A program made the position numbers and the translations under genes. A stretch of DNA of 64,000 bases. Origin: a virus (taxonomy: Duplodnaviria > Heunggongvirae > Uroviricota > Caudoviricetes). The notes beneath the pieces are model-generated. The model saw only the letters and a list, made by a program, of their open reading frames with translations, was not told the origin of the DNA and ran no database searches. Positions 15,401-64,000 of the stretch are shown here, piece after piece; positions within the stretch are counted from its first letter, which is position 1; every line of letters begins with the position of its first letter. The stretch is taken from IMG/VR virus record IMGVR_UViG_3300042673_001280; one strand, written 5' to 3'.

Positions 15401-18400
15401 AGTGTTGTAGCTCTTGCATTAAATTGGAAAGTTACTGAATATCCGGTTGCGTTAGTTGACGAAGTTGGTAACGGAGATGTAAGTACTGTAGATGTAGTAC
15501 CTAAAATTTCAGCTCCCGGATTAACAGATTCTACAGGATCAGTTGGGTATAACACAGTTATTCTATTAACAGATACTCCTTCAGATGCAGTTGTATCTAC
15601 ATACACCGGAGTAGATAATTCAACTGATAAATCAGCAGGTGTTATAGGTTGAAGTTCATCTGGAAGATGTAAATTTAAATCCGGAATATTAATATATCCA
15701 GAACCACGATAAACAATTTTAATTTCAACAATTTTAGTATCAACAATCTTACATACTGCTTTTGCTTGTTTTGTATATCCTCCGCCATCGATTGTAATTG
15801 TCGTACCATCAGGATATCCAAGACCGCCATTTACAACAGTTATTGTTTTAACATTTGCCGCAGTTGATGCTCTAATTTGAGATCCTGCAGGAACCCAACA
15901 TGACGGACTAACTGTAATAGTATGATTTGGAATATCAACTTCTTGAATAATTGCACCAACGCCACTAATTGATTCTACTGCCGAGGTCACAACCATGCCA
16001 ACCTTAAATCCATTAGTTGAACTAATTGTTAACGTAGTTTGATCTAATACACCAACAACTTGATAAGAACCGTTATAGTCACTTAATGCGTTATCGTTAA
16101 CTGCAATATTAAGATAACCGTCAACTTTTGGTAACACATTATCTTTATTATACGGAACATCAAACGTTACGACTGTAGCAACTACGCTGCCGTCTTGCAA
16201 TGCCTTACTATGATACGACATTGCAGGTAATGTATAGTCGTCGGCACTATTATTTGTTATTGGAACACTTGAAATTTCAATATATCCGTTACGTGTAGAT
16301 CCAAATGTAACTGAGTAATTATTAATTGCAGTACCGACTGTATCTCTAACTGTTACAACTGCAATAGCCGGGTCTTCGCTATTAATTACTACATTATCAA
16401 CATACCCAGTAAGTGTGATAGTAGTTCCATTTTTTACTACAAAATAATCAGAAATATTAATTGTGCCTACAGTACCACTAACTGTTAGTATATTACCAAC
16501 ATAGCTAGTACATGTTCTACTAACTGCAGCAGTTGGTTGTACATATTGCAAAATTTGATGTATTCTACCATTCCATGCTGTAATATAGGTTTGTTTGTTA
16601 AGTTGATCTATTACTGCAATTTGTGTAATTGGAATTACTGCAAGTTTAGTATCACTTACTTTATACCCTTGGGTTGCATTTGTAAACGAAACTTCGCCTG
16701 ATGGTGTTACCGACGGTGCTGCCTCTAATGATGGTTCAACTGTTGTTAACACAATCTCAAATTTACCAGCATCTACACCTGTTTTTGCAACTACAGATTG
16801 GACTATTTGTCCAGCAAACCCAATACCAACAATTGTTTGACCTACTGCAATGGTAGTACCAGCTGCAACGTTATTAACGACAATCGTCGTACTTGATGTA
16901 CTACCTGATACAACAGTTGCAGTAATAGTGTTAGACGGATCGCCGTTGATGATATTAGTAGGATCGATCATAATATTGTAATATGCAAATGAATTATCAC
17001 TTTGTAAAATTGCAATATTTGGATCTAATAGCTCACCGGTTGATTCTGCTAAATTATAAGCAACGATACGATATACATCATTTAAGTTATCGTTATATTG
17101 CAATGCAGTAGACGGTCTAGTTGGTTTAACGTTATCAATGTTATTAAACTTAACATTTTTTAATACACGAATTGATACTACTTGTCCATCATACAACGCT
17201 TTTGCTAATCCTGAACTTGCAGTGTTATTATCGCCTGATGTACTTAAATTAAGTTTAATTACAATTATGTTGTTTACCCGAACAGTAGTATACTCAACTG
17301 ATGTAATAATATAGTTAGTAATAATACCACCGTTTGCACTATGGTCAATTTCTAATCCCGACCCGGTAGTTGGAATATACTCATACGCATGTACCCATAC
17401 TGCAACTGCAGGAGTAGTAGCAGTAGGCACCATCTCGTTAATAGTTTCACCTTGTTTATAAACTTTTGCAGTTTGCAACATATGATTTGCTAAGTTTGCA
17501 CTATCTGGTAATTCAGTAACATCAAACCCTGAAGCACGCATACCATAGTTACCAAATGTGTTTGAACACCCGACACCACGTAAATTACTACCGTTATTTG
17601 CCCAGAACCCGGTATGTGCATAATATGTAAATGTACACACTTGTTCAGTAAATGCACCGTTAGATGCTACTATACCATAACCTAAATCGTTAAACATTGC
17701 AAAGTCATTTGCTAACATTGAACGATTACCACCGGTTTCTAAATTAATTGTTAAATCTGCACCGTTGTTTAAAAAATCAGTTACTTGTTTAGCAATCCCA
17801 GTAGGACCTGTAATATCTAACCCAGTGTATGCAGTTGTATTAACATTACTTGGCAACGTAGGCCATTCTACTGTAGGTAAGGTTGATGCTACATTTGGAT
17901 TTGAATTTACATAATCAATTACTATATTAACTAGCGTAGTAAGGGTTAAATCAAATGTACTATCAGCAGCTAATGTTTGAATTTGATTTTCTTTATTGCC
18001 ACGGGTTGGAGTTACTTCAACACCTTTAACAATTGATGTTAAAATATTACGTAATCTTATGTATGCTGTTTGACATACTGATTGCACATCTCCATCTAAC
18101 AATACTGATTCATATAAATTTGAATTGTTTTTAGAAAATAACGACGTAGCATAATCAACTGTTTGGCTGTTACCGCCATAGAAAATATCATATGTAATTG
18201 CATCAACTAAATAGCCAACATCACGTTCACTCTTTTGTCTATTATAGTTAGGCAACGTGCTTAACACATAATTATCTGAAATATACGCAGTTATTTCAGC
18301 TTTAATAAACGGTTTATTAATTTGAAGAATATCACGAGCTTTATTTTCATTTAGTGTTTTAGATGCCCAAACAAAGTCTAATGTAGCACTTACACCGTTA

Positions 18401-21400
18401 ACTAACATACTTGTTATAAGTGTACTTGATAAAGTTAACCCGGGAATTTCAGCATTTGCTAATTCGATCGATTTCTCAATTCCTGCTTTAGTTAACCCTT
18501 GAAGCTCTCCAATTAACAAACTAGAAGATAGTCTTAAGAATGCTCTACCTGCATGTATTGCACGATAATTAGTACCTAATATCGCATCAGTAACTACTGC
18601 ATCAATTACATACCCTGCATCGCGTCGTGCCTTTACTTCATCGTACACTAAATTGTTTGATATTGGATTATACATATACGGCGTTGTAGTATCTAACGTT
18701 AACGTTACTGTTTGAGTAGCAGCATTAAATTCAACAATGTCGTCAATTTGATAACGCTTTCCTCTAACATAAAACGAACATGGCGGTTGTGGAGGTCTAA
18801 CATCAAGTCCGCTGCTTTGACCAAACACAATTTTACCAGACGGCGTACTATCTGCAACTGCACTTAATACCACTGTAGCATTAGTCGATGGCGCAACTGG
18901 TAACGTTACACTTACAACATATTGTCTACTTTCAAATCCAGTACCTGTAATTTTAACACCTGGTTTTAATCCAACAATGTTAACGATATTATTAACAACC
19001 ATAGTAGTTGATAATCGTCCGCCACTTACATATGTACCAACTGCACTAGTTGTACCTTGTACTTTAATTGTAAGACCTAAGTCAGTAATCTCTTTAATAG
19101 TGCCGTATACGCGACCTGCAAATCCGTCAATATATTGTCCACCTGCAAATCGTTTATAGTTGTTACTTTGTGAAAAACTAGAACATTCTTGAATGTACGG
19201 TGATTTAGTTTTAATGTTACCTTCTGGATCTAGAACCATTGCAAAGCCGCCTTGACCTTGGAACGTTACACCAATAATACGATTACCTTCATTACATAAG
19301 AATACGTCAATTTCTTTATTATTTTTAGCAGGACTTGTTACATCTAATGGATTAGTTAAATAATGACGTCCGTAGTTAATAGTGTCAAACAAGAACCAGT
19401 TGCCGGCTAGTTTAGTAAATGCAGTTTCAAACGGATAAATTACCGTACAGTTCATTGTGTTACCACTAACTGAATCAATAACTGCTTTTCCTCTTTTCTT
19501 ATTGCCACCAGCAGGTATAACATTATCAGTAAACACTTTACCTACCCAACTTAATAATGCTTGGTAATTATTACTTAACGTGATAATAATTTTACCACTA
19601 ACACCGTCAAGCGTAGCAGTAATACCTAAAGAGACTAACGGTGCCGAATTTGAAGCATAATCAATAAGACCTACTTCTAACGCATCAATAATTGCATCGC
19701 GATAGAAAAATACTCTACGCCACGGGCTTTGACTTTCTCTATCGATTGGACGAATAAGTGTTCTACGCATCTCGTCACCGCGAACTGAAACGTTTGCTGG
19801 AATTTTTAACGGAAAGTCTTCGTAATATATTCCGCTTTCTATAAATACTGAAAGATTTAAATCTCGTACTGTTTCACCAAATTCCAATTCTTCGCCTACT
19901 TTAAAGAAACCGGGTTTAGTTAATCGAACTTGTATTCTGTCTTTACCTGTTGATATTTCAGGTGTGTATTTTACAATGCTAGCATACGCCCCTGATGCAG
20001 TTAAATTAGTTGACACCCGGCCAACTCCGACAATTATCTTAGCAGGAAAAATATCATTGCTTTTTGGAGCACCTTGGTCAACATAACCCTTACCGCCGTT
20101 GTCAATATCAATATTCCAAATTGCAGTACCGTGCGACGGCGTGGCTGCAAAACTAACACCGTAACGGATTATGTCTAATACACTATCTAAACTATCAGTA
20201 AATATTGCAGTAGCTTCATCTGAAATTTCAGACAGATAGCTGCCAACTACTCCAATGCTACTTGATGGTAGTATTGCAGTTGATGAAAACGCAGTAAGCT
20301 GAGTTTCAGCTTGTTGGTATCGAACTGCTGTGTAACCTGTTAATACCTCTATACCTAAGTTTTTTGCAAATGCAATACCGTCAAAAGATTGAACATAATG
20401 TGTGCCAATTGCAACTGATTTCGCGCTTGAGTTTTTGTAAAAACTTTTACCTGCAGTTATTGATTGCCAGTTTCCACCGGTAATAATATCTATTGCGGCT
20501 GCATCAACTATTAGTCCAATATCGCGATAACATAACGATTCATCATAATTAAATCCACCGCCAAACGCAGTATTAACATAATCAATAGAGGTATTTTCAA
20601 TTACTTCGGCATTATTATTAATAATAACCTTTAAACTAATTGCATCAATGTATGTTCCACCAGTAAATATAGTGTCATCAACTGGGATACCCATATATAA
20701 GTCATTATCAATTGCAGTAGCTGCAGCTGTAAATTTTGTACCAATAAGGGTTGACGTTGCATTAGTATCATCGTCGTCGCTATGTCCGTTAACGATAGTT
20801 CTAGCGTATAACGAAGTTTTACTAATAACAGTTTTTGTAATAGCCGGCGTGCTAACTATTGTCATTTGATGTGCAGCTGCAACCGATGCTGCTGTCCCGC
20901 CGTACGTAATATCATAACATACTGAAATAATTAGTTTCCTTAAATCAACTGCTAATATAGCTAAAACATCTACGTCAGTGATACTTTCATCAATATCTAA
21001 ATATGAGTTAACATCATTAATAATACTAGTAATAGCAGCATTATCTAAACGATTACGTGCGTTACGAATCCAGCCATTTGGTAGCGGTTGTGTAGTGCCG
21101 CCAGTTACATATGAATTTACTTCAACATTAATATCTGGATATCTTGGTAACTCTGTCGGAAGTTCACCTGACTTAATTATTGTGTCAATTTCAACAAACA
21201 ACGCGTTAATTCTTTCTAAATAATTAGGATCGTTAATTACTGGGTAGAAGTGATCCATATACCATGATGCTGTAGTAGTAACATCTGAATTTGTGCCAAC
21301 AGTGTATATAGATTTATCTAATTCTAATGCTGTAAAAAATGTTATTAAATCAGGTGTCCCAGCAGCAGAATTTGGCAACTGGATAGCCGGAGTAGTATTA

Positions 21401-24838: not shown

Positions 24839-25372
24839 TTATCCTGTATATCTACAATGGCTCTTCTTTGTTTCCCACAGCTCAACTGCAGTAACCTTTG
24901 CTACATCACCAATGCGTGATTGTGCATATTCAAACAAATACTTACAGATGTTTTCACTAGTTGGTACAAAATCTACTAGTACAAAACTGTTATAATGTAA
25001 CTGCTCACCTTCAGTTAATCCGACCCAGTTGCAAGTTCCTAAGTTAGTAAAGTTTGCAAATGGGTGTTCTGAATTCCTCCATTCGTTACCTGTAATTAAC
25101 TTAAAGTTTGGATCATTAATATCAATCATAAACTTATGATCTAGCACATCATCTACAAATTGTTTCATAAAGTTTAAATTCTTAAAGTCTGTAACCATTT
25201 CTGAATGATCTAAAGTATCAGAACCTAAAAATACTTTAATTGAATAGCTGTGTCCGTGTAAATGCTTGCAGGCACAGTCAGTTGAAATACTTAACTCAAC
25301 ATGATTTAATTTTTGTGCCCATACTCTGTGTCCCATTTCAAAATGAAACTCTTTATCTATTTCCCATTTCAT
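24839..25372 (-). CDS. queD: 6-carboxy-5,6,7,8-tetrahydropterin synthase (QueD/PTPS family)
   Basis: FHFEMGHRV, CACKHLHGHSYSIKV (Cx5HGH zinc motif) and LDHKFMID align with the three QueD signature blocks. It has a ~50-aa C-terminal extension relative to E. coli QueD. Confidence 0.8.
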   Translation of the reverse strand: MKWEIDKEFHFEMGHRVWAQKLNHVELSISTDCACKHLHGHSYSIKVFLGSDTLDHSEMVTDFKNLNFMKQFVDDVLDHKFMIDINDPNFKLITGNEWRNSEHPFANFTNLGTCNWVGLTEGEQLHYNSFVLVDFVPTSENICKYLFEYAQSRIGDVAKVTAVELWETKKSHCRYTG

Positions 25373-25399: not shown

Positions 25400-25428
25400 A
25401 TTATATAATCATTGCTTCAAGAAGTCAA
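25400..25428 (-). promoter_or_regulatory. near-consensus sigma70 promoter (TTGACT-17-TATAAT) for queD
   Basis: Reverse complement of 25400-25428 gives TTGACT, a 17-nt spacer and TATAAT, 28 nt upstream of the queD ATG. Confidence 0.6.
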
Positions 25429-32443: not shown

Positions 32444-34084
32444 ATGACTAACACTGATTGGGCAACTAATGTTGCCCTATCATCTTATACAGATGATGAA
32501 TTTAATTTAGGTATTTGTGGATCGCATGACGCCTCAATTGCAATATCAAAAGGGAATAAAATCTTAGAAGTAGTTGAGATTGAAAAATTCACTGGAGAAA
32601 AACATGCTAATTTAATATTTAATACTGAAACACAAAAAGATATTAATAGCCACATTATTACCGAAGTATTAACTTACTTTAGACGCAAGTATCAAGCTAA
32701 CACATATAACACTGTTTTTTGGAACTTGGTCTGTTACCACAACCAATGGTTAATGGATGACTTACCTACAGAAATTAAAAACTTGTTCCCTTCGCGGAAT
32801 TTTAAAAGATTTAGCCATCACTTATCACACGCATCAAGTGCATTTTATCAATCGCCGTATAATCGAGCATTAATTATAACATTTGACGGCGGAAGCGATG
32901 AAGGATTATTAAATGTATATATCGGTAATGGAACTGACGATTTAATTCATTTATATAGTAATACTCGTAATTACTGTGTTCCTTATGCAGTAATAGGCCA
33001 TTTCATTTACGAGATTAAAAATGAACCAATCTATCAAATGGGGCAATTTACGTATCCGGGTAAAATGATGGGATTAGCCGGGGACGGAGAAGTAGCTGAC
33101 GATATTGAGCAAAATTTTACAAACTATTTCGAAGAAGTTGCAACTGCTAACTTACAAATACCTGAATTAATAGATTGCTTTGCAAAACATATGAATATTT
33201 CAAATTCAGTACAGGCGAGTAAAAATACTGCAAAAACATTTGCCGCCACTGCTCAAGTAGTATTTGAAAAATTGCTACATGAAGAAATTGGTGGGTTCTT
33301 AAAGGCATCACACGGGTTGCCGATTGTGTTGTCAGGCGGTGGTGCATTGAACATTATAAACAATTCAAGAATAGCAAAATCTCATAAAGTATTTGTTCCG
33401 CCTAATCCGAATGATTCAGGGATTGCAATAGGATTGTTATGCAATGGTATTCGACCAAAAGAAAAGATAGATTGTGCATACCTTGGTCCAGACGCATTAG
33501 ATAGCAGTACGTTAGAAGATGTTGTAGCGTTACGTAACGGCACTACTGTTGATCTAAATAAGCTTGCTGATAATATCATTGCAGGTAAAATTTATGGCGT
33601 AGTCCGAGGCCGATCTGAATGTGGGCCAAGAGCATTAGGTAATCGAAGTTTGATATGTAGTGCAATTATTCCTGAAATGAAAGATATCTTAAATTCTAAA
33701 ATTAAAAATAGAGAAAGTTTTAGACCGTTTGCACCAGTTGTAAGATTAGAAGATGTTCACACATATTTTAAAAGTAAAGATGAATTAAGATTTATGTCAT
33801 TTAATGTTGAAATTCATAAACAGTATGAATCACTATTATATGCAGTATCAAGTTCAGACAATACTGCTAGGGTACAAACAATTACTCGAGAACAAAATGA
33901 ATTCTTATACGATTTATTAACACTATTAGATAAAAAAGTCGGACATGGTATTTTGCTAAACACATCGTTTAATCTTGATGGAAAACCGATTTTAAACAAA
34001 TATGCCGATGCATTAGACGTATTAGACACTAAAGATATAGACGGTGTAATCTTTGAAAATTATCTTATTGAAAAATCAAAATGA
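32444..34084 (+). CDS. carbamoyltransferase of the NodU/CmcH/TobZ family
   Basis: N-terminal LGICGSHDASIAI motif on an ASKHA/Kae1-like fold. ~550-aa length with a C-terminal YrdC-like half, typical of O-carbamoyltransferases. Confidence 0.65.
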   Translation: MTNTDWATNVALSSYTDDEFNLGICGSHDASIAISKGNKILEVVEIEKFTGEKHANLIFNTETQKDINSHIITEVLTYFRRKYQANTYNTVFWNLVCYHNQWLMDDLPTEIKNLFPSRNFKRFSHHLSHASSAFYQSPYNRALIITFDGGSDEGLLNVYIGNGTDDLIHLYSNTRNYCVPYAVIGHFIYEIKNEPIYQMGQFTYPGKMMGLAGDGEVADDIEQNFTNYFEEVATANLQIPELIDCFAKHMNISNSVQASKNTAKTFAATAQVVFEKLLHEEIGGFLKASHGLPIVLSGGGALNIINNSRIAKSHKVFVPPNPNDSGIAIGLLCNGIRPKEKIDCAYLGPDALDSSTLEDVVALRNGTTVDLNKLADNIIAGKIYGVVRGRSECGPRALGNRSLICSAIIPEMKDILNSKIKNRESFRPFAPVVRLEDVHTYFKSKDELRFMSFNVEIHKQYESLLYAVSSSDNTARVQTITREQNEFLYDLLTLLDKKVGHGILLNTSFNLDGKPILNKYADALDVLDTKDIDGVIFENYLIEKSK

Positions 34085-54875: not shown

Positions 54876-54904
54876 TTGACAAATTGATACAAATATAATA
54901 TAAT
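54876..54904 (+). promoter_or_regulatory. consensus sigma70 promoter (TTGACA-17-TATAAT) for the operon containing dpdA
   Basis: Exact hexamers. AGGAG SD and ATG at 54926 follow. Confidence 0.65.
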
Positions 54905-54925
54905 ATATAAAACTAGGAGATATAC

Positions 54926-55663
54926 ATGAAAGACTTTTTACAAGATTTAGTAGCACATACACATACATTAACCGTTTTACCATTAGTTAAAGTAACTGCA
55001 ACTGCAGAAAATGCAGTGATTGAATCAGTAGCAGAAGATAGATCAGTAATGCTGTACGCAACTACACATACGCCAGTTAATGGTCTCGAACCATGCATCT
55101 TTGGTATGCCAAATTTAAACAAATTAGACTTACATCTTAAATGTCCAGAATATAAAACTGATGCAACTATTAAAGTTGTACAAGAAACTAGAGATGGTGT
55201 AAAAATCCCAACAGGGTTACACTTTACTAATGCAACTGGTGATTATGAAAATGATTATAGATTTATGAATGAAGAAATCGTTAGTGCAAAAGTAAAAAGA
55301 CCAAAACTTAAAGTAGAAATAGTGTATGATTTAGATTTTATTCCAACAGGTGTAAGTATTCAAAGATTAAAACATCAAGCTGCTGCACATACTGAAGAAA
55401 CTGTATTTCAACTAGTAACAGTTGATAACGACTTAGTATTTAGATTCGGTGATGCTAGTACACACGCAGGCTCATTTGTATTCCATCATAACATTAATAC
55501 TACATTAAAAAATACATGGTCATGGCCAATTACTCCAATTTTAAGTATTTTAAACTTAAATGGTAACTTAACTATGAAAGTTTCAGATCAAGGTTCGTTA
55601 CAAATTATAGTTGACAGTGGTATTGCAGTTTATAACTACACTATTCCAGCATATACAAAATAA
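54926..55663 (+). CDS. hypothetical protein (first gene of the dpdA operon)
   Basis: ORF only. Confidence 0.4.
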   Translation: MKDFLQDLVAHTHTLTVLPLVKVTATAENAVIESVAEDRSVMLYATTHTPVNGLEPCIFGMPNLNKLDLHLKCPEYKTDATIKVVQETRDGVKIPTGLHFTNATGDYENDYRFMNEEIVSAKVKRPKLKVEIVYDLDFIPTGVSIQRLKHQAAAHTEETVFQLVTVDNDLVFRFGDASTHAGSFVFHHNINTTLKNTWSWPITPILSILNLNGNLTMKVSDQGSLQIIVDSGIAVYNYTIPAYTK

Positions 55664-56079
55664 TGATAGACATTAGAAAAGCATTAAAATTATTAGATAT
55701 CATATATGTAAACGACAACGAGAGCATTAAATCGTCAGTTGATAAACTAACAATGTTAGCGCAATTAGATATGCCATCTTATGCTATGCCAGGACCGTTT
55801 GAACAGTTTTATGTTGATTACGAATACATGAAACAACGTGTGCAAGGACTTGAATCGAGATTAACCACACTTGAAGATTATAATCGAAACCCATATACAA
55901 ATTACACTGTTAATTCGCATATAGTTGGCCATGTTACTACAAGTCCGCAGTTTGTAAGTGCATTTAACAGAATTACACAATTAGAAACTGAATTACAAGT
56001 TACTAAAACGTTACTTAGTAAGTTATTAACCCCAGAACAGGAAGAAGATGAATCGGAACTTAACAGCAACACAGAATGA
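55663..56079 (+). CDS. hypothetical coiled-coil protein
   Basis: ORF only. Confidence 0.35.
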   Translation: MIDIRKALKLLDIIYVNDNESIKSSVDKLTMLAQLDMPSYAMPGPFEQFYVDYEYMKQRVQGLESRLTTLEDYNRNPYTNYTVNSHIVGHVTTSPQFVSAFNRITQLETELQVTKTLLSKLLTPEQEEDESELNSNTE

Positions 56080-57943
56080 TTATGCTGTATTCCTACCAGC
56101 AACGTCGGGTTTTTACTCAACGTTTGTCGGAAAACAACGTTACGGCAATTATGTTGAACCTTCACGTATTCCTGCATCATTTAAAGCAGGCGTAGAAGGT
56201 CTTAATTACTTAGAACCAGAAAAAGGTGAATTTTATTACAGATGGTGTTTGTATTCAGCAGGGCATGCAAACTTAGACTTGACTAAGCCTGACGAAAGCG
56301 AAGACATGTTTCGTAATAGAGATAGAAGCACTAGTTGGGTATTAGGTGACTCGGGCGGTTTCCAGATTGGTAAAGGCGTATGGGAAGGCGAATGGAGAGA
56401 TCCTAACAGTGCAATAGTACAAACAACCATGGCTGATTGCATTGCTAAAGGTATTGAAACTGTTCCTGTACTTGACTCAACAGGAAACCCAGTAGTTAAC
56501 AAAAAAGGTGTTCCTAAAACTACTAAAATTGATCACGTTAAACTATATCAAGCTCGGTTAGATGCTGCTCAAAAGAAAAGAGAGCAAGTATTAGCATGGA
56601 TGGATACGTTAATGGATTACGGAATGGTACTTGATATTCCGGCATGGGTCGAACGAAGTCCTGCAGGTAAACTTGCAACTGGTATTACAAGTTATGACGA
56701 AGCAGTTGATGCTACAATTTATAACAATGAATACTTTATGAAACACCGCAATGGTAACTGTAAATTCTTAAACGTATTACAAGGTGAAACCCATACACAA
56801 GCTGACGATTGGTATAGTAAGATGAAAGACTTTTGTGATCCTGCTATATATCCAGATACACACTTTAACGGGTGGTCAATGGGTGGTCAAAATATGTGTG
56901 ATGCCGAACTAGTACTTAAACGTGTAGTAACATTAAAATTTGACAACTTGTTACAAGAAGGCAAACATGATTGGATGCATTTCTTAGGAACCAGTAAATT
57001 AGAATGGGCATGCTTTTTAACTGATGTACAACGTGCAGTGCGTAAATATGTTAATCCAAAATTTACTATTAGTTATGATTGTGCTAGTCCGTTTTTAGCT
57101 ACTGCAAATGGACAGGTGTATATTACTACTGAATTAGACGATAGATCTAAATGGGTATATCGAATGGTGCCAAGCGTTGACGATAAAAAATATGCACAGG
57201 ATTCTAGACTATTTAAAGATGCAGTAATACAAGATGGTATTTTTAGTGTGTTTGATCCAAGTCCATTAATTGATCAAGTAGCAATTAAAGACGTGTGTAT
57301 ATACGGTCACGGTGTTCCTAATTGGACAGAAGTTAATAACGATAATGTTGATCATGCTAACCTATTTACAGATCCAAAATATTTAAATGATCCTAAATAC
57401 TGGATAACATTAGGCGATGCAAATAAAATTAACAAGATTGGTAAAACTAGTTGGGATAGTTTTAGCTATGCTATTTTAATGGGGCATAATGTGTGGAGTC
57501 ACGTTAATGCTGTACAAAAAGCAAATGAAGCTTACGACAACGGTATAATTCCTCGAATGTTAATAGGCGAAAAAACTCAACCGTATGTTGTTAGAGATAT
57601 TATTGACCGGATTATTGCGTGTGATGATAGAACCGTTGCTATTAAGATGATTGAAGATCTTGAAAAGATATGGATGGCTATTCCGGGCACTAGAGGTAAC
57701 ACTGGCAAAAACATAGTTAACAACGAAACTACTACTACTACTAATTATGTAGCCGAATCAATTATTACAGAAAAAGTTGAAAAAATTAGAAAAGTGTTAT
57801 TAACAGATCTTACATCACAAGTTAACAACTTATTTGATTTTGATGACAATATTACAGAAGAAGTAGAATCCGATGACTATGAGTTTTCTGAAGAAGACGA
57901 ACTTACCTTATCTAACCTAGAAGATAGCATTAAACATGAATAG
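56048..57943 (+). CDS. dpdA: tRNA-guanine-transglycosylase-family DNA 7-deazaguanine transglycosylase (DpdA-like) with a ~240-aa acidic C-terminal extension
   Basis: LGDSGGFQIG aligns with the TGT catalytic-Asp block (TDSGGFQ). YDCASPFLATANGQVY aligns with the second catalytic block (MFDCVLPTR.ARNG). No CxCxxC...H zinc site, as is usual for phage DpdA. Confidence 0.7.
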   Translation: MNRNLTATQNDYAVFLPATSGFYSTFVGKQRYGNYVEPSRIPASFKAGVEGLNYLEPEKGEFYYRWCLYSAGHANLDLTKPDESEDMFRNRDRSTSWVLGDSGGFQIGKGVWEGEWRDPNSAIVQTTMADCIAKGIETVPVLDSTGNPVVNKKGVPKTTKIDHVKLYQARLDAAQKKREQVLAWMDTLMDYGMVLDIPAWVERSPAGKLATGITSYDEAVDATIYNNEYFMKHRNGNCKFLNVLQGETHTQADDWYSKMKDFCDPAIYPDTHFNGWSMGGQNMCDAELVLKRVVTLKFDNLLQEGKHDWMHFLGTSKLEWACFLTDVQRAVRKYVNPKFTISYDCASPFLATANGQVYITTELDDRSKWVYRMVPSVDDKKYAQDSRLFKDAVIQDGIFSVFDPSPLIDQVAIKDVCIYGHGVPNWTEVNNDNVDHANLFTDPKYLNDPKYWITLGDANKINKIGKTSWDSFSYAILMGHNVWSHVNAVQKANEAYDNGIIPRMLIGEKTQPYVVRDIIDRIIACDDRTVAIKMIEDLEKIWMAIPGTRGNTGKNIVNNETTTTTNYVAESIITEKVEKIRKVLLTDLTSQVNNLFDFDDNITEEVESDDYEFSEEDELTLSNLEDSIKHE

Positions 57944-58460
57944 ACAGTATAATAACATAACTACTAACACTGCTAAGTTTTTTGTTGGCAACGAAGTAGA
58001 ACACACACCAGCATATAGTTTAAAAACATTGTTTGTTGTTGGCGCGCAAACTACAGAAGCAATCCATTATCGGTTAGATGCTGAAGAAGATATTACACAT
58101 ATCTTCTTTGGTGCAAACCATAGTTTTAATCCAAATACACCAGGTGCATGGCTCAATTGGAATAACATTATCGAGCACTTTTTAAAATTAGGCAAACAGT
58201 GTTCATTAGATATTCCATTTACAGTAGTAAACGATTTTAATAATAAAACTAATTTATGTTCATATGCAAATTTTATTCCTCAAATTAGAATTCCGGTTGC
58301 AAATATTAAAGATTGGAGTTATAATACAATGATAAAATTAGATGACATAGATTTTAACGCAACTAATCCCGGGGTGTGGACACATAACTTAAAAGCATTG
58401 CAAAATGACGATGTGTTTACTAGCTGGACTGACTATAACAACGACAATATAATTAAATGA
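57936..58460 (+). CDS. hypothetical protein (possible Rossmann-like fold)
   Basis: KTLFVVGAQ ... IFFGANHSF pattern. ATGAATAG overlap with the dpdA stop. Confidence 0.3.
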   Translation: MNRQYNNITTNTAKFFVGNEVEHTPAYSLKTLFVVGAQTTEAIHYRLDAEEDITHIFFGANHSFNPNTPGAWLNWNNIIEHFLKLGKQCSLDIPFTVVNDFNNKTNLCSYANFIPQIRIPVANIKDWSYNTMIKLDDIDFNATNPGVWTHNLKALQNDDVFTSWTDYNNDNIIK

Positions 58461-58816
58461 CAGATACACAAATGATATGGGTTTCTTTTAAGAAAGAAGG
58501 AATTCACCATTACCCTGATGCATTAACTAACCCTAACTTAATAGATGTATCTTTTTTAGGACATCCACATAGACATATATTTCATTTTAAAGTATGGATA
58601 GAAGTTACGCATTCTGACAGAGACATTGAGTTTATACAATTTAAACGATGGTTAGAATCATTGTATATTAGTTCAACATTATCATTAGATAACAAAAGTT
58701 GTGAAATGATAAGTAATGATTTATCATTAACAATTAGAAATGAATACCCTAATAGGGCAATTTGGATTGAAGTTTCTGAAGACGGCGAAAACGGATCATT
58801 TATTAAGTATTTGTAA
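58457..58816 (+). CDS. hypothetical His-rich small protein (LGHPHRHIFHF)
   Basis: ORF only. Weak resemblance to T-fold metal-site motifs. Confidence 0.3.
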   Translation: MTDTQMIWVSFKKEGIHHYPDALTNPNLIDVSFLGHPHRHIFHFKVWIEVTHSDRDIEFIQFKRWLESLYISSTLSLDNKSCEMISNDLSLTIRNEYPNRAIWIEVSEDGENGSFIKYL

Positions 58817-58817
58817 T

Positions 58818-59030
58818 ATGAAACATTTTGTCTCAAAAGCTATGCTTGAACAACAGATTAATCGGTTACGCCAAGAGATATCAGACTTTGAAATCCAACA
58901 TATGAAATCAGTTAACCCTAAACTTAAAAACGTATTACACATTAAACAATTAAGAAATCAACTGTACGATTTGAAGGAACAACTGCTAATTCGTACTAAA
59001 CAAACTATATTAAAAAACGGAAGAAAATAA
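58818..59030 (+). CDS. small coiled-coil protein
   Basis: The ATG directly after the upstream stop is the likely start (ORF track gives 58740, overlapping the previous gene). Confidence 0.35.
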   Translation: MKHFVSKAMLEQQINRLRQEISDFEIQHMKSVNPKLKNVLHIKQLRNQLYDLKEQLLIRTKQTILKNGRK

Positions 59031-59031
59031 A

Positions 59032-59286
59032 ATGGCTAAAAATTACAAAACATTCTCATACTTAGAATCACGTCCAGATGTTGTTAAAATCTTTGAAGAT
59101 TTAGAAGCATTCCATGACTTTTGCAGAATTGAGTTACGTAAATTTGATCCAGCAGATTTATATCGTAAAGATAGTAAATCATACGGTGCTTACATTGCTA
59201 GTAAACGCCCTCGTAAACCATATCAAGGTAATAAACCTTGGCCAAACGGTGTTAGACCCAAAAACACATATCAAAAAAAATCTTAA
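59032..59286 (+). CDS. small basic protein
   Basis: ORF only. Confidence 0.35.
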   Translation: MAKNYKTFSYLESRPDVVKIFEDLEAFHDFCRIELRKFDPADLYRKDSKSYGAYIASKRPRKPYQGNKPWPNGVRPKNTYQKKS

Positions 59287-59300
59287 TCTTATTTTTAACT

Positions 59301-59320
59301 GAAAGCCCTACGGGGCTTTC
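59301..59320 (+). other. GC-rich 8-bp stem-loop (gaaagccc-tacg-gggctttc) without a U-tract
   Basis: Perfect complementarity. Intergenic, between the dpdA operon and the glycosyltransferase gene. Confidence 0.5.
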
Positions 59321-59335
59321 ACCGCAGGACATATT

Positions 59336-60433
59336 ATGAAATTAAAACCTACTATTTGGATATTTGCTATTGAACCATTAGATACTCGATATACTAAACA
59401 ATGGATCGAGCATATTCCATCACAACTTAAAGAACACGTTGGTGATTACAACATTGTACAAATTACTGGTGATCAACAAGACTCAGAAGTAACACCGGGT
59501 GCATTTTTAAACTTTATAGATACTAACATTTGGAAAGGATCACAGCTTGTTGGTTTTTTAAAAAACTATAATAAATCTTCAACTAATGATCATTTCTTAT
59601 TTACAGATGCATGGAATCCGGCAATTATAAACTTAAAGTACATTAAAGACTTAATGAGATTAAATTGGACATTTCACGGGTTGTGGCACGCAGGTAGTTA
59701 TGATAAACACGACTTTCTAGGTGCTATTGATCACGGGTGGGTTAAACTAGCTGAAAAGAGTTATTATGCAGCATTTGATCATAATTACTTTGCAACTGAA
59801 TTCCACGTGCGTATGTTTATGGAACAATTATTAAACAACGGAATGACTAGTGAAAATCCGTGGTTTGAAGAAGATTGGGATGAACGTTACGACGATGGTA
59901 AAATTGTACGCACTGGTTGGCCAATGGAATACTTAGCAGACGAACTAGCGCCGTATGCTAATAAAGAGAAACGTGATTTAATTGTATTTCCACATAGAGT
60001 TGCTAGCGAAAAACAAGTTGATATTTTTAAAGCATTAGCTCATCAATTACCACAATACGACTTTGTTGTATGTCAAGAACAAAAGCTAAGTAAAGATGAA
60101 TATCACAACCTGTTAAGCGAAGCAAAGATCGTGTTTAGTGCTAACTTACAAGAAACATTAGGCATTAGTTGTTATGAAGGTGCGTTACTTGGTGCTATTC
60201 CAATGGTTCCTGATAGATTAAGTTATAAAGAAATGTATATGTATCATTTTAAATATCCATCAGAATGGACTGCTAGTTATGCAGACTACGAATCACACAG
60301 TTATGATTTGTGTAACAAAATTATCCATTACATAGAAAACTATAATGATATTGTACCATATGTTAAACAACAAGCCGATTACTTAGCACTGGAATTTTTT
60401 AATGCAGGAGATTTATATGACAAGTTTAAATGA
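59336..60433 (+). CDS. GT-B-fold glycosyltransferase-like protein
   Basis: C-terminal FPHRVASEKQVDIF ... IVFSANLQETLGISCYEGALLGAIPMVPD resembles the E-x7-E retaining-GT motif region. Confidence 0.4.
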   Translation: MKLKPTIWIFAIEPLDTRYTKQWIEHIPSQLKEHVGDYNIVQITGDQQDSEVTPGAFLNFIDTNIWKGSQLVGFLKNYNKSSTNDHFLFTDAWNPAIINLKYIKDLMRLNWTFHGLWHAGSYDKHDFLGAIDHGWVKLAEKSYYAAFDHNYFATEFHVRMFMEQLLNNGMTSENPWFEEDWDERYDDGKIVRTGWPMEYLADELAPYANKEKRDLIVFPHRVASEKQVDIFKALAHQLPQYDFVVCQEQKLSKDEYHNLLSEAKIVFSANLQETLGISCYEGALLGAIPMVPDRLSYKEMYMYHFKYPSEWTASYADYESHSYDLCNKIIHYIENYNDIVPYVKQQADYLALEFFNAGDLYDKFK

Positions 60434-60836
60434 TACAATAACAACATCATCTGGGTGTGATACAATTACATTTAATATGGATGGAGATCCAACACGTTAC
60501 AGTATACCAGCTTTTGATACTATTACACTTAGTGACTATGTATCTAGTTCAACTGCTAGCGGAATATACAATGGAACAATGCATGGTACTGCTCCGTACA
60601 CAATTAGTAATTCTTCTACTATTGGAATTAATGGGGGGTCATCTTATTACACCGGCACTGGTGGTTATTGGAATCAATCATATAACGGTAAACCATTTGA
60701 AGATAACTTTCCAGAATGGAATGCATTTAGAGAGTTGTGTGATGAATATCCAGGATTAGAAAGAGCATATCAAAACTTAAAAACTTTTTATACTATGTGC
60801 CATGCAGATAGTTTATTACCAAAGGACGATAAATGA
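60402..60836 (+). CDS. Ser/Thr/Gly-rich hypothetical protein
   Basis: ORF overlapping the end of the GT gene. Start uncertain. Confidence 0.3.
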   Translation: MQEIYMTSLNDTITTSSGCDTITFNMDGDPTRYSIPAFDTITLSDYVSSSTASGIYNGTMHGTAPYTISNSSTIGINGGSSYYTGTGGYWNQSYNGKPFEDNFPEWNAFRELCDEYPGLERAYQNLKTFYTMCHADSLLPKDDK

Positions 60837-61363
60837 AAGTAGTAAAATACAGTTGGAAACAATTAGAAGGCGCAGCATTGGAGATTGCACGTCAAATACA
60901 AAAAGATAACTGGAAACCAGATTACATTGTTGGAATTACACGCGGTGGACTTATTCCTGCAAACTTACTTAGTCAGTATCTTGGAGTTAAGATGTTAACA
61001 TTACACGTTAGTTTACGTGATCATCCGGATGATAACGAACACAATGCATGGATGGCATGTGATGCATTTGGAATTACTGATGACGAACTAGCAAGTACCG
61101 GACAAGCTAAAAACATCTTAATTGTTGATGACATAAATGACTCAGGTGCAACCCTTGATTGGATTAAAGAAGATTGGAAATCATTGTGTTTACCAAATGA
61201 CATAAGATGGAAACACGATGTATGGCATAAGAATGTAAGATTTGCTACAATATTTGATAATAGTGCTAGTAATGCACATGTTGATTATTGTGCAGAAGAA
61301 TTTGATAACCGAGACGATCCAATTTGGATTGACTTTCCATGGGAAAACTACTGGAAGAAATAA
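60833..61363 (+). CDS. type-I phosphoribosyltransferase (purine/HGPRT-like)
   Basis: PRPP-binding motif ILIVDDINDSGATL. ~175-aa size. Confidence 0.7.
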   Translation: MKVVKYSWKQLEGAALEIARQIQKDNWKPDYIVGITRGGLIPANLLSQYLGVKMLTLHVSLRDHPDDNEHNAWMACDAFGITDDELASTGQAKNILIVDDINDSGATLDWIKEDWKSLCLPNDIRWKHDVWHKNVRFATIFDNSASNAHVDYCAEEFDNRDDPIWIDFPWENYWKK

Positions 61364-61695
61364 TGGAACTACATTCAATAGCTAAGAAACACGGTATACG
61401 AAGCATAGACGTTGAACAATTTTATGCTGCAGGTGATAACTATTCGTTAGATTGGTCAAGATCAAACCTACCAAGCGAAAGAGCAAACGTTACACGGTCA
61501 TTAACTGTTAAAATACACGAGAACGATTTTATAAAGTTAATTGACAAAGCTGAAAAGTGTGAAGACTGGAATAAAAAATATTATGAAGATATGTATGTTA
61601 GAGATTCTAATCCAACTGTAAAAGCAGCATACGAAAAATATCAAATGTTTTTAGAAATAGCAAGATCGGAAGTACACAATGACAGACTTAACTAA
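61339..61695 (+). CDS. hypothetical protein
   Basis: ORF only. Confidence 0.35.
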   Translation: MGKLLEEIMELHSIAKKHGIRSIDVEQFYAAGDNYSLDWSRSNLPSERANVTRSLTVKIHENDFIKLIDKAEKCEDWNKKYYEDMYVRDSNPTVKAAYEKYQMFLEIARSEVHNDRLN

Positions 61696-61839
61696 AGAAG
61701 AACTACAAGAAAAGATTTTACAAGTAAAACGTGATATTTCTAAACATAGCGATTCAAGTAATCCACGTATATTATTAGGCCTTCAAGAATATGTAAATTA
61801 TTTAGAAGACGAATTAAAAACATTGACAAATAAACAGTA
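61678..61839 (+). CDS. candidate 53-aa coiled-coil micro-protein (MTDLTKEELQEKILQVKRDISKH ...)
   Basis: GGAAG SD 6 nt before the ATG. Fills an otherwise empty 180-bp gap. Its 3' end carries the -35 of the folE promoter. Confidence 0.3.
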
Positions 61840-61851
61840 GTGTTGTATAAT
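61823..61851 (+). promoter_or_regulatory. consensus sigma70 promoter (TTGACA-17-TATAAT) for folE
   Basis: Exact hexamers 27 nt upstream of the folE ATG. Confidence 0.65.
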
Positions 61852-61877
61852 ACACACTTACAACTAGGAAATTATAT

Positions 61878-62549
61878 ATGAGCTTTAATAAAACAAAAAC
61901 CGATTCAGAATTAGGTTTAGAAATACACAATCATTTAGTAAGTTTAGGAGTAGAAACTCCGGTAACTGAAAAAATATTAACATCATCAGAAAAGATTAAT
62001 ATCATTCAGGACAAGTTTTATGATATTATGGTAACTTTAGGTTTAGACTTAACAGATGACAGTTTAGCAGACACTCCTAAACGTGTTGCAAAAATGTTTG
62101 TCAACGAAATATTTTGGGGTCTTGATTATGATGCGTTTCCCAAATGTACTACTATTCAAAATAAGATGGGATACAATGAAATGTTAATTGAACGCAACAT
62201 TAACGTACAAAGTAACTGCGAACATCACTTTGTAGTAATTGACGGGTTTGCAACAGTAGGTTACATTCCAAAAGATGTTGTACTTGGATTAAGCAAAATT
62301 AATCGCGTAGTTGAATACTTTGCAAAACGTCCACAAGTACAAGAAAGATTAACAGAACAAGTATTCCATGCACTGGAATACATTTTAGATACTGATAATA
62401 TTGCAGTAGTAATTGATGCAAAACACTATTGTGTTGCTGCAAGAGGTGTAGAAGATACAGGTAGCACTACTATTACTAGTAAGTTAGGTGGTGCATTTAA
62501 AAACGATCCAACTACTCGTGCAGAATTTATGAGTATTGTAAACAAATAA
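61878..62549 (+). CDS. folE: GTP cyclohydrolase I
   Basis: CEHH, GLSKINRVVEYFAKRPQVQERLTEQ blocks conserved with bacterial FolE. Confidence 0.9.
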   Translation: MSFNKTKTDSELGLEIHNHLVSLGVETPVTEKILTSSEKINIIQDKFYDIMVTLGLDLTDDSLADTPKRVAKMFVNEIFWGLDYDAFPKCTTIQNKMGYNEMLIERNINVQSNCEHHFVVIDGFATVGYIPKDVVLGLSKINRVVEYFAKRPQVQERLTEQVFHALEYILDTDNIAVVIDAKHYCVAARGVEDTGSTTITSKLGGAFKNDPTTRAEFMSIVNK

Positions 62550-62557
62550 GGAGAGTT

Positions 62558-63010
62558 ATGAAAGACTTAAAACCACAAATTCCAGCAGTAGGCATTATGA
62601 AAACAAGTGACTGGGGTAACAGTAAAATGTATAAAATTCAATGCACATGCGGCAACGACGATGACAATATTGAGTTTATGATTGAGGCAGATGATCTTAA
62701 TATGATTACTGTAACTACATTTACAACACAAAAAACTGCGTACTGGGATAGACCATTTGATGTTTCGAACACATACAAAATTAAAAATTCGTTTTTAAGC
62801 AGTATTGCATACGAAACATTGAGCTTTCTTAACGGGTTTCAGCATCGTATTAAAATGACATGGAATTTGTGGTTTAATGGTTATCTTAAATATCAGCAAT
62901 CAACTATAATGACTGAACAACAGACATTAAACTATGCAGAAACATTGAAGGCTGCAGTTAATGATTGCAAAGATTTTCGTAAACAAGATAGGGCAACTAA
63001 TCTTAAATGA
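62558..63010 (+). CDS. hypothetical protein with a CxC pair (CTCGNDDD)
   Basis: ORF only. Confidence 0.35.
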   Translation: MKDLKPQIPAVGIMKTSDWGNSKMYKIQCTCGNDDDNIEFMIEADDLNMITVTTFTTQKTAYWDRPFDVSNTYKIKNSFLSSIAYETLSFLNGFQHRIKMTWNLWFNGYLKYQQSTIMTEQQTLNYAETLKAAVNDCKDFRKQDRATNLK

Positions 63011-63031
63011 GGTAGTTTTAAACCCTTAACA

Positions 63032-63039
63032 TATAAATA
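63032..63039 (+). promoter_or_regulatory. T4-type late promoter TATAAATA in front of the homing-endonuclease-like gene
   Basis: Exact octamer 17 nt upstream of the ATG at 63057. Confidence 0.45.
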
Positions 63040-63056
63040 AGTGTAGAGGAACTATT

Positions 63057-63707
63057 ATGAACTACTTAATGATTAAAAAATGTATGAATACCGGACTTAA
63101 ATATCTGTGTAAAACAAGCGGTAACAAAAATCCTTATTTATATACCGGATCCGGAGTTAGATGGTTGCACCATATTAAGAAACACAAATCACATATTATA
63201 ACTTGTATAATAGGTGAATATAATACTAAAGAAGAATTGCAAGAAGCAGGTCTGCATTATTCTAAATTATATAATGTAGTAAAAGATTACACCTGGGCAA
63301 ATTTAACAGAAGAAAAAGGCGACGGTGGATTAATAGGTAACGGACAATTAGGTAAAACTTGGAAAATTAAAGATACATCTAATATGAATAAACCAAAAAC
63401 TAAAACAGATGCTTGGTATGAAGGTAAAAAAAAGACTGCTGGTAAAAACAACTATCAATTTAAAGGTCAAATAAAGACCCCATGGGGTCTTTTTGATACA
63501 GGTTTAGATGCTATTACAGAAGGCAAACGATTAAGAGAATTAGGAAATACAGAAGTAATTACAGATGGCAATACTTTAAGAAAGTATTTACATTCGTTAG
63601 ATACTGTGTTAAACTTACAAGGCAGGCGAACTCCAAAAACTTGGAGAGGTAAAACGCCAAGAGAAATAGGTTTTGAAATAATAAAGGATACAGATGTCAA
63701 AAATTAA
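63057..63707 (+). CDS. GIY-YIG-type homing-endonuclease-like protein (Seg-like)
   Basis: N-terminal YLMIKKCMNTGLKYLCKTSGN ... RWLHHIKKH fits the GIY-10/11-YIG ... R ... H catalytic module. Basic Lys-rich C-terminal DNA-binding-like half. Inserted between folE and queE. Confidence 0.4.
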   Translation: MNYLMIKKCMNTGLKYLCKTSGNKNPYLYTGSGVRWLHHIKKHKSHIITCIIGEYNTKEELQEAGLHYSKLYNVVKDYTWANLTEEKGDGGLIGNGQLGKTWKIKDTSNMNKPKTKTDAWYEGKKKTAGKNNYQFKGQIKTPWGLFDTGLDAITEGKRLRELGNTEVITDGNTLRKYLHSLDTVLNLQGRRTPKTWRGKTPREIGFEIIKDTDVKN

Positions 63708-64000
63708 GATATCAGAAATATTTTACTCTCTACAAGGAGAGGGTAGATTTATGGGAGTGCCAAGTGTGTTCCTTAGAACGTTTGGGTGCAATTTTTCTTG
63801 TAGAGGGTTTGGAATGCCAGCAGGTGAACTAAGTGTACAAGCAGATGCGATTGCTAATAATGGTATACAATATCATTCATATGATGAACTACCATTAGTA
63901 ACTACTGGCTGTGACAGTTATGCAAGTTGGCATCCAAAGTTTAAACATCTAAGTCCAGCGATGTCAATAGACGAAGTTGCAGCTAAAATGATTGAGCTGT
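63694..64000 (+). CDS. queE: 7-carboxy-7-deazaguanine synthase (radical-SAM QueE), 5' part. The gene runs off the window.
   Basis: EIFYSLQGEGRFMGVPSVFLRTFGCNFSC aligns with the QueE N-terminus (F.TLQGEG ... GVP..F.R..GC...C). Not in the ORF track because no stop occurs inside the window. Confidence 0.7.
   Translation, partial: MSKIKISEIFYSLQGEGRFMGVPSVFLRTFGCNFSCRGFGMPAGELSVQADAIANNGIQYHSYDELPLVTTGCDSYASWHPKFKHLSPAMSIDEVAAKMIEL

Follow-up and report, generated by a model that had tools for sequence, protein, structure and literature searches.

A phage 7-deazaguanine DNA-modification gene set with a candidate TGT-fold transglycosylase and a predicted 7-carboxy-7-deazaguanine decarboxylase

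We analyzed a 64,000-nucleotide stretch of tailed-phage DNA (Caudoviricetes; IMG/VR record IMGVR_UViG_3300042673_001280), hereafter called the window, for the genes of a 7-deazaguanine DNA-modification system. An original prediction, made from the sequence alone, had named four pathway genes, and all four open reading frames (ORFs) are present where it placed them. The genes of the system and their conserved partners are as follows (aa, amino acids; TGT, tRNA-guanine transglycosylase):

24839-25372, minus strand: queD (6-carboxytetrahydropterin synthase), 177 aa, from Pfam PTPS, PHROG, and motif
56048-57943, plus strand: dpdA-like DNA-guanine transglycosylase candidate, 631 aa, from TGT-like fold, motifs, and context
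57936-58460, plus strand: conserved partner ORF, 174 aa, with homologs beside dpdA
58457-58816, plus strand: dpdL (QueD paralog; predicted 7-carboxy-7-deazaguanine decarboxylase), 119 aa, from homology and signature
59336-60433, plus strand: GT-B fold, GT4-type glycosyltransferase, 365 aa, from fold and EX7E
60833-61363, plus strand: type I purine phosphoribosyltransferase (PRTase; Gpt/XPRT-like), 176 aa, from Pfam
61878-62549, plus strand: folE (GTP cyclohydrolase I), 223 aa, from Pfam GTP_cyclohydroI and NCBIfam FolE
63694-64000, plus strand, cut by the window end: 5' part of queE (7-carboxy-7-deazaguanine synthase), from NCBIfam QueE

The window has 35% G+C and belongs to a large tailed phage. 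Its gene products include a family-B DNA polymerase, a clamp loader, a ligase, PhoH, a dCMP deaminase, and proteins of the baseplate and tail fibres. Metagenome contigs of 133 and 174 kb carry the same phage, the longer one being Ga0335006_0000005 (JGI 3300035190); the genome is at least 174 kb long, and ~74 kb of it was inspected (the window plus 10 kb downstream). No cultured phage is alike at the DNA level: a megablast search with the 9-kb region gave no match among 50,697 phage records.

The identities of folE, queD, and queE are borne out by profile matches and, for queD, by its motif. FolE matches Pfam GTP_cyclohydroI at 2.3e-60 and the NCBIfam FolE equivalog model at 315.6 bits against a cut-off of 202. 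QueD matches Pfam PTPS at 1.5e-28 and a PHROG QueD-like family at 8e-36, and it keeps the CxxxHGH motif as C-KHL-HGH. Its NCBIfam QueD score of 68.8 bits falls under the 89.25 cut-off because of an internal insertion. The 102-aa QueE fragment matches five NCBIfam QueE models (best 1.7e-9), and the full-length gene is found on an identical metagenome contig (L007:7078-7920). There it encodes a 280-aa radical-SAM protein, for which QueE models take the first five places in NCBIfam, each scoring under its cut-off. FolE, QueD, and QueE, the 7-carboxy-7-deazaguanine/preQ0 synthesis enzymes of phage 7-deazaguanine systems (Hutinet 2019, Cui 2023), are thus all encoded, and the phage 7-deazaguanine DNA-modification gene set is real.

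The original prediction had overlooked dpdL, which lies two genes after the dpdA-like gene and overlaps the end of the preceding ORF. DpdL was named and defined by the motif LxxxHRHxF in phages phiST and ACP17 (Cui et al. 2023, PMC10516641). The window protein has this motif exactly (L-GHP-HRH-I-F) where QueD has CxxxHGH. By tblastn it matches DpdL of ACP17 at 56% identity (3e-38), that of PA5oct at 52%, and that of phiST at 32% (4e-8), and it falls in PHROG 17812 at 2.7e-34. The absence of QueC, QueF, and an amidotransferase, which had been noted before, is correct for the window and the 10 kb downstream, where tblastn with QueC, QueF, Gat, and YhhQ queries found nothing. Queries with PAPS-reductase-like, PIG-L-like, epimerase-like, and phiST MazG/ATPase proteins also found nothing over the same range.

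It had further been held that the final base could not be inferred. With DpdL present and no QueC found, however, the final base becomes predictable, and the genes point to the branch that leads from 7-carboxy-7-deazaguanine (CDG) to 7-deazaguanine. By analogy with phiST, the final base is most likely plain 7-deazaguanine, present in DNA as 2'-deoxy-7-deazaguanosine (dDG). Phage phiST encodes FolE, QueD, QueE, and DpdL without QueC, and 100% dDG was found by liquid chromatography-mass spectrometry (PMC10516641). The system in the window is probably the QueC-less "CDG branch" in a large T4-like or PA5oct-like phage. Like phiST (PMC10516641), the window has the CDG synthesis genes, an LxxxHRHxF DpdL, and a TGT-like enzyme; phiST also carries a homolog of the PRTase, and QueC, missing from phiST, was not found in the ~74 kb inspected. 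However, the phiST DpdA3 is a protein of 259 aa (gp042, CGPG_00065; Campylobacter phages carry the same subfamily), and the window protein is probably not a DpdA3. Furthermore, phiST has neither the GT4 gene nor the 174-aa partner, and its genes are contiguous, whereas queD in the window lies ~30 kb from the other pathway genes, as originally described.

The earlier dpdA assignment of the 631-aa protein rested on two short motifs. The protein has no Pfam match even at E values up to 10, and none in NCBIfam or PHROGs. Searches of PDB sequences with the single sequence and with the family profile gave chance-level matches to unrelated proteins (E ~1), and a DpdA2 family profile also found nothing there. 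The relatedness is visible only by structure and by profile-profile comparison. We used an AlphaFold model built from 34 homologs in a structure search, in which the top matches were all from the TGT superfamily and generic TIM barrels ranked lower. Independently of that search, the top 50 Foldseek matches were TGT entries only. The predicted model thus has the TGT-type TIM-barrel fold.

By hhalign, the DpdA-like family aligns with the ACP17-type (DpdA2) profile with a probability of 97.5% and an E value of 5.8e-12, over 202 columns of the catalytic core. Between the DpdA2 profile and E. coli Tgt, the E value is 4.9e-7. Three aspartates, D101 (in DSGGFQ), D196 (in LDIP), and D344 (in ISYDCASPF), are invariant in the DpdA-like family, including the PA5oct, Phosso, and Vibrio members. 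D101 and D196 align with D89 and D143 of E. coli Tgt by way of the DpdA2 profile. D344 aligns directly with D264, the Tgt nucleophile, with the "YDCAS" block falling on the FDCV block of Tgt; the numbers D89, D143, and D264 were verified on the E. coli Tgt sequence. The original prediction had made its case depend on whether the DSGGFQ and DCAS blocks align with TGT catalytic residues. They do, and the TGT-family call is upheld by fold and motifs, with the curated sequence models silent.

The likeness to Tgt and to the bacterial DpdA (PDB 7ui4) consists of the TIM-barrel fold of TGTs and the blocks DSGGFQ, (F/L)D, QG, LG, and (F/Y)DC in the same order. Given this fold and these collinear motifs, base exchange through a covalent Asp-ribosyl intermediate would be expected. 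Unlike Tgt, the window protein has no CxCxxC...H zinc site (C417 is the single invariant Cys past D344 in the family), carries ~250 extra residues as one insert and a long C-terminal extension, and is missed by the Pfam PF01702 and NCBIfam tgt models. Judged by its predicted structure and conserved residues, the 631-aa protein is a TGT-fold enzyme with an intact catalytic set.

BLASTP of the protein against ACP17 DpdA and against phiST DpdA3 was not significant, and tblastn with it recovered no DpdA2 phage. An hhalign comparison with phiST gp042 (DpdA3, as a single sequence) gave E 2.6e-3 and a probability of 12%, with collinear motifs. Membership in DpdA2 was set aside for lack of BLAST-level similarity, and DpdA2 is read as a sister family. 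Placement in DpdA3 was set aside as well, the similarity to gp042 being marginal. We treat the protein as a member of a distinct DpdA-like subfamily.

This family comprises 1,076 clusters at 50% identity (E <= 1e-3) and more than 7,500 at 90% identity, none of them annotated by Pfam, on contigs of up to ~350 kb. One member, of 426 aa, lies near capsid and portal genes on contig MRWG01000095.1 of GCA_002007545.1 (172 kb; L018 10001-11281). Deazaguanine synthesis genes are not obvious in the 10 kb around it, and the locus looks like a prophage in a bacterial assembly. In the window protein, the TGT-fold core is joined by a well-modelled insert of ~60 residues (~113-172), which is confined to the closest relatives. 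The C-terminal residues ~545-631 are low-confidence, disordered, and acidic, with a conserved F(T/S)E...L..LE end common to PA5oct. This acidic tail has the look of a peptide that docks onto a replisome partner.

Genes for 7-deazaguanine synthesis accompany the DpdA-like family in all four cultured-phage lineages that have it. They include queE in the PA5oct-like Pseudomonas jumbo phages; queF, queC, folE, and genes for an amidohydrolase and a YhhQ-like transporter in Vibrio phage 2.275.O; and dpdL, folE, and queE in Sinorhizobium phage Phosso, ~170 kb from its dpdA-like gene. In addition, a distant metagenomic member directly adjoins a queE homolog. In the window, PA5oct, Vibrio 2.275.O, and the loci L014/L015 and L017, the dpdA-like gene follows closely on the genes for the DNA polymerase and a clamp-like protein. 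PA5oct DNA resists cleavage at several G-containing restriction sites and is attacked by nucleases specific for modified G (PMC12191111). This context supports a role on DNA.

The structural matches also bear on a very improbable alternative, in which the 631-aa protein does not act on DNA. It would instead be a modifier of tRNA or protein, as is Cap10 of CBASS, or a non-catalytic replication accessory, and the deazaguanine genes would belong to queuosine or tRNA metabolism. In its favor, the top structural matches include Cap10 and the non-catalytic QTRT2, the protein lacks the zinc site, and some family members sit in a polymerase-clamp module with no deazaguanine gene visible on a short contig (L017). 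However, the invariance of the catalytic aspartates and DSGGFQ across the family argues against a dead scaffold, and the protein has neither a PUA domain nor any other domain for tRNA binding. The known contexts of DpdL are all DNA modification, the genes are linked to replication genes and not to tRNA genes, and PA5oct DNA is demonstrably G-modified (PMC12191111).

The original prediction had described the pathway genes as interleaved with a glycosyltransferase, a PRTase, and a homing endonuclease. The first two identifications hold, one by fold and the other by Pfam. As interlopers, however, they are misread, as both genes recur in the DpdL/DpdA clusters of unrelated phages, including the PA5oct-like ones. 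From this conserved gene neighborhood, we take the GT4 gene, the 174-aa ORF, and the PRTase gene to be parts of the modification system. All three lie outside the published dDG pathway (PMC10516641).

The 365-aa glycosyltransferase has the two-Rossmann-domain GT-B fold by fold comparison. It has no match in Pfam (including Glycos_transf_1), NCBIfam, or PHROG. Its EX7E, the motif of the GT4 family, is formed by E273 and E281, both invariant in 34 homologs. In the phage collection, homologs were found in 22 records, and 17 of these also have DpdL. The gene lies no more than ~2 kb from dpdL, dpdA, or both in Phosso, the PA5oct-like phages, ACP17, and Xanthomonas BUDD/X1. For Burkholderia BCSR5, the distance to dpdL is ~3 kb, with dpdA immediately adjacent. 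A 370-aa gene that follows the DpdA-like gene of Vibrio 2.275.O was considered as a further GT4 homolog and rejected, as it is not homologous.

These observations raise the question of whether the final base is a sugar-bearing 7-deazaguanine, with the GT4 enzyme, perhaps aided by the 174-aa protein, glycosylating the base before or after insertion. We consider this rather unlikely. The GT4 fold with its intact EX7E fits such a role, and so does the near confinement of the homologs to DpdL phages, a few kb from dpdL/dpdA and in six lineages. A precedent is HuiG, which glycosylates a 7-deazapurine with UDP-GlcNAc. However, 7-deazaguanine offers no obvious hydroxyl acceptor, and no glycosylated 7-deazaguanine in DNA is reported in the searchable literature. 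In E. coli, ACP17 DpdL and DpdA by themselves yielded no product, and other enzymes were suggested (PMC10516641), which would leave room for a glycosyltransferase, but phiST makes dDG without one. A further point in favor is that the nucleases acting on PA5oct have been described as sensors of hypermodified DNA (PMC12191111). A PIG-L-like deacetylase in the BUDD/BCSR5 clusters and an epimerase-like ORF in PA5oct would suit sugar chemistry, but both matches are weak. The target of the glycosyltransferase may also be an unrelated one, such as a different base, a protein, or the host envelope.

The BUDD (L011 6383-7956) and BCSR5 (L012 7161-8999) clusters carry a PAPS-reductase-like ATP pyrophosphatase (8e-13) and a PIG-L/LmbE-like deacetylase (4.7e-5, under its cut-off). 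Pairs of GT4 and PIG-L enzymes make glucosamine conjugates in bacillithiol and mycothiol synthesis. By analogy, the pair in these clusters hints at an amino-sugar derivative.

The 174-aa ORF has no profile match in Pfam, PHROG, or NCBIfam. It has a homolog immediately upstream of dpdA in ACP17 (tblastn 5e-14; blastp 2e-17 with the ACP17 start extended), and in Xanthomonas BUDD and Burkholderia BCSR5, small ORFs in the equivalent place are weakly similar to its N-terminal part.

The PRTase matches Pfam Pribosyltran (PF00156) at 1.1e-16, with 61 bits against a gathering score of 26.3, and its best NCBIfam model is xanthine PRTase (1.6e-16). Its phosphoribosyl pyrophosphate (PRPP)-binding loop, ILIVDDINDSGATL, is visible in the sequence. 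Homologs occur in Synechococcus phage BUCT-ZZ01, in the dDG phages phiST, phi13:1, and phi19:2 (DpdL carriers), and in PA5oct, where EST35_0321 lies beside queE. A comparable gene repertoire is known from tubercidin synthesis, in which TubC, TubA, and TubB correspond to FolE, QueD, and QueE, TubE is a CDG PRTase, and TubF is a decarboxylase (PMC6112128). The window shares with it the repertoire leading to a 7-deaza-GMP analog, with no QueC found in the ~74 kb inspected, a purine-type PRTase, and a later decarboxylation (PMC6112128). In contrast, the tubercidin decarboxylase is of the UbiD family and not a T-fold DpdL, no TGT takes part, and the product is a free nucleoside antibiotic.

The tubercidin comparison suggests a pre-replicative route at the nucleotide level, which we think unlikely. 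In it, the PRTase would join CDG or 7-deazaguanine to PRPP, as TubE does, and DpdL would decarboxylate the base or nucleotide to give 7-deaza-GMP. Kinases and ribonucleotide reductase would carry this on to 7-deaza-dGTP for incorporation by the phage polymerase, a MazG-like pyrophosphohydrolase would trim dGTP, and the TGT-like enzyme would be auxiliary, for example patching remaining G. A set of FolE, QueD, QueE, PRTase, and decarboxylase that lacks QueC is exactly the tubercidin front end, in which TubE is a CDG-specific PRPP transferase (PMC6112128). PRTase homologs recur in unrelated DpdL phages (the phiST group, BUCT-ZZ01, PA5oct, and the window phage), but several DpdL phages have no PRTase match. 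Since the best PRTase profile is of the xanthine/guanine kind, guanine salvage explains the gene equally well. The window does have a MazG/PRA-PH-like gene (2310-2681), another adjoins dpdL in phiST, and the complete G replacement in phiST would be easier through the nucleotide pool. However, no dedicated kinase or dGTPase was identified in the window. Furthermore, a DpdA is encoded by each phage known to have 7-deazaguanine in its DNA, and the conclusion of Cui et al. is that the base enters after replication (PMC10516641).

The third gene described as interleaved, the "homing endonuclease" at 63057-63707 (plus strand), encodes 216 aa and overlaps the queE start. It finds no profile support in Pfam or PHROG, and the identification is neither confirmed nor excluded. 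Its four matches are hypothetical proteins of Vibrio phages. Across four near-identical metagenome contigs, the ORF showed no presence/absence polymorphism and was identical, with only the gene-call starts varying, so that nothing points to mobility.

Two cultured phages resemble the locus most. PA5oct (Wroclawvirus) is its closest cultured relative, at EST35_0311-0325. It has, in the same order, DNA polymerase, clamp-like gene, small ORF, DpdA-like gene (34% identity), GT4 (44%), DpdL (52%), PRTase-like gene, QueE, and RNase H, and its DNA is experimentally G-modified, as known from restriction patterns (PMC12191111). It differs in having an extra epimerase-like ORF and no detectable homolog of the 174-aa ORF, and all these genes except queE are annotated "hypothetical" there. 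Acidovorax phage ACP17 has queD, folE, an ORF like the 174-aa one, dpdA, GT4, dpdL, and queE in one replication-linked cluster, with identities to the window of 56% for DpdL, 36% for GT4, 27% for the 174-aa ORF, and 62% for FolE. However, its 424-aa transglycosylase groups with the nt-1, VH7D, and KVP40 proteins called DpdA2 by Cui et al. (the ACP17 assignment is inferred from similarity to these Vibrio proteins) and is related to the window protein at the profile level only (E 5.8e-12). No PRTase match was found in the 18-kb ACP17 cluster locus or for this phage in the phage-collection search.

We also examined promoters, as the original prediction gave each pathway gene its own perfect early promoter. 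The sites are as follows:

61823-61851, plus strand: folE promoter, perfect TTGACA-17-TATAAT, ending 26 nt before folE
25400-25428, minus strand: queD promoter, TTGACT-17-TATAAT (11/12), ending 27 nt before the queD ATG
54876-54904, plus strand: perfect TTGACA-17-TATAAT, heading the run of clamp-like gene, 138-aa ORF, dpdA-like gene, 174-aa ORF, and dpdL
411, 2365, 30331, 39423, 51634, 54876, and 61823, plus strand: starts of the perfect promoters, TTGACA-N17-TATAAT

The claim stands for folE (12/12) and nearly so for queD, but not for the dpdA-like gene or queE. The best site near the dpdA-like gene is 10/12, and the perfect promoter at 54876-54904 lies 1.1 kb and two genes upstream of it; queE has nothing above 9/12. 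The genes downstream of 54876-54904 abut or overlap, and the run from the clamp-like gene to dpdL would form one operon. The exact motif occurs seven times in the window, always on the plus strand, against 0.06 expected. Because of this excess, we take the seven sites, from sequence, to be genuine consensus sigma-70 promoters of the phage. All are co-oriented with plus-strand genes; one (2365-2393) falls inside the MazG-like ORF 2310-2681 as called. A special tie between these promoters and the pathway genes was considered and rejected: five of the seven are unrelated to deazaguanine genes, and the sites would be the general early promoters of the phage. That the seven act early is plausible, and so is early expression of the modification system.

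The reading that we favor, and hold to be likely from the sequence and the structural model, is that DpdL converts CDG to 7-deazaguanine, which the DpdA-like enzyme then exchanges into DNA to give restriction-resistant dDG-DNA. FolE would convert GTP to dihydroneopterin triphosphate, QueD would form 6-carboxytetrahydropterin, and the radical-SAM enzyme QueE would form CDG. These three steps are the established biochemistry of their families. DpdL has Leu in place of the catalytic Cys of QueD and is predicted to remove the carboxyl group of CDG, yielding 7-deazaguanine. The 631-aa TGT-fold protein, judging from fold, motifs, and context, would then swap guanine in phage DNA for 7-deazaguanine with D344 as the nucleophile and, as in TGTs, a covalent Asp-ribosyl intermediate. 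The exchange would be coupled to replication, probably near the fork, and may reach most or all G residues. We infer this coupling from the position of the transglycosylase gene after the polymerase and clamp-like genes, from the consensus early promoter, and from the disordered acidic tail. The resulting dDG would protect the DNA from G-recognizing restriction enzymes. As best guesses, the PRTase would recycle released guanine to GMP and on to GTP, and the glycosyltransferase would add further decoration.

Several points weigh against exchange of plain 7-deazaguanine by the DpdA-like enzyme. The decarboxylation of CDG by DpdL is a prediction of Cui et al. 2023 (PMC10516641). DpdL and DpdA of phiST and of ACP17 produced no dDG in E. 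coli, after which Cui et al. suggested that other enzymes may be needed (PMC10516641). QueC may lie in the remainder of the genome. The 631-aa protein escapes every curated TGT model and lacks the zinc site, and its AlphaFold model has a pLDDT of 63, with values below 50 in the DSGGFQ region. Finally, plain dDG would require neither the conserved glycosyltransferase nor the PRTase, which leaves room for a different product or route.

The three alternatives discussed above are not mutually exclusive. We tentatively raise the possibility that the widespread large-phage group formed by the window phage, the PA5oct-like phages, Phosso, ACP17, BUDD/X1, and BCSR5 makes an undescribed 7-deazaguanine base or follows an undescribed route. 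This would be GT4-glycosylated and/or a TubE-like, nucleotide-level dDG, with the replisome-linked DpdA subfamily (~1,000 clusters at 50% identity) inserting or patching.

The type of system is already known, and the variant is new in three respects. The DpdA-like subfamily lies outside curated models and is labelled "hypothetical" in PA5oct, Phosso, and Vibrio 2.275.O. The conserved accessory set of GT4, 174-aa ORF, and PRTase goes beyond the published dDG pathway, and the cluster has a conserved position in the replication module. Part of this novelty may already have been catalogued by Cui et al. 2023. Replacement by 7-deazaguanine is a main phage defence against restriction and CRISPR cleavage, and it hampers the sequencing and engineering of therapeutic phages. 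Recognizing the DpdA-like family would mark many phage genomes that look unmodified as G-modified. The GT4, PRTase, and 174-aa genes are candidates for the "other unknown enzymes" invoked by Cui et al. (PMC10516641), and they make post-replicative replacement of G testable against replacement through the nucleotide pool.

Several neighboring genes were also noted. The clamp-like gene between the DNA polymerase and the dpdA-like gene (54926-55663, plus strand) encodes a 245-aa protein of PHROG 12062. Its PA5oct homolog, detected by mass spectrometry, is annotated "structural protein," and the Phosso gene at the same position is annotated "sliding clamp beta"; the protein is probably a phage sliding clamp. 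The polymerase gene upstream is uninterrupted in the window (887 aa). It is interrupted by a homing-endonuclease ORF in PA5oct (L001 1608-6834) and by an intein in L017 (2934-6384). The MazG/PRA-PH-like nucleotide pyrophosphohydrolase at 2310-2681 (plus strand; Pfam 3e-12), which has a MazG-like counterpart beside dpdL in phiST, may help shape the dGTP pool.

Giant ORFs occupy the minus strand at 5686-11730 (2,014 aa) and 12415-23922 (3,835 aa), and a further ORF of ~2,600 aa with faint Calx-beta matches lies beyond the window end. All three are probably fibre or adhesin-like virion proteins. At 32444-34084 (plus strand), a 546-aa NodU/CmcH-type carbamoyltransferase matches Pfam Carbam_trans_N and Carbam_trans_C at 5e-54 and the PHROG "Nol-like carbamoyltransferase" at 1.6e-98, and a PHROG cytidylyltransferase match falls within 39-62 kb of the window. 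Both would be sugar- or small-molecule-tailoring enzymes, and they could be linked to DNA or surface modification.

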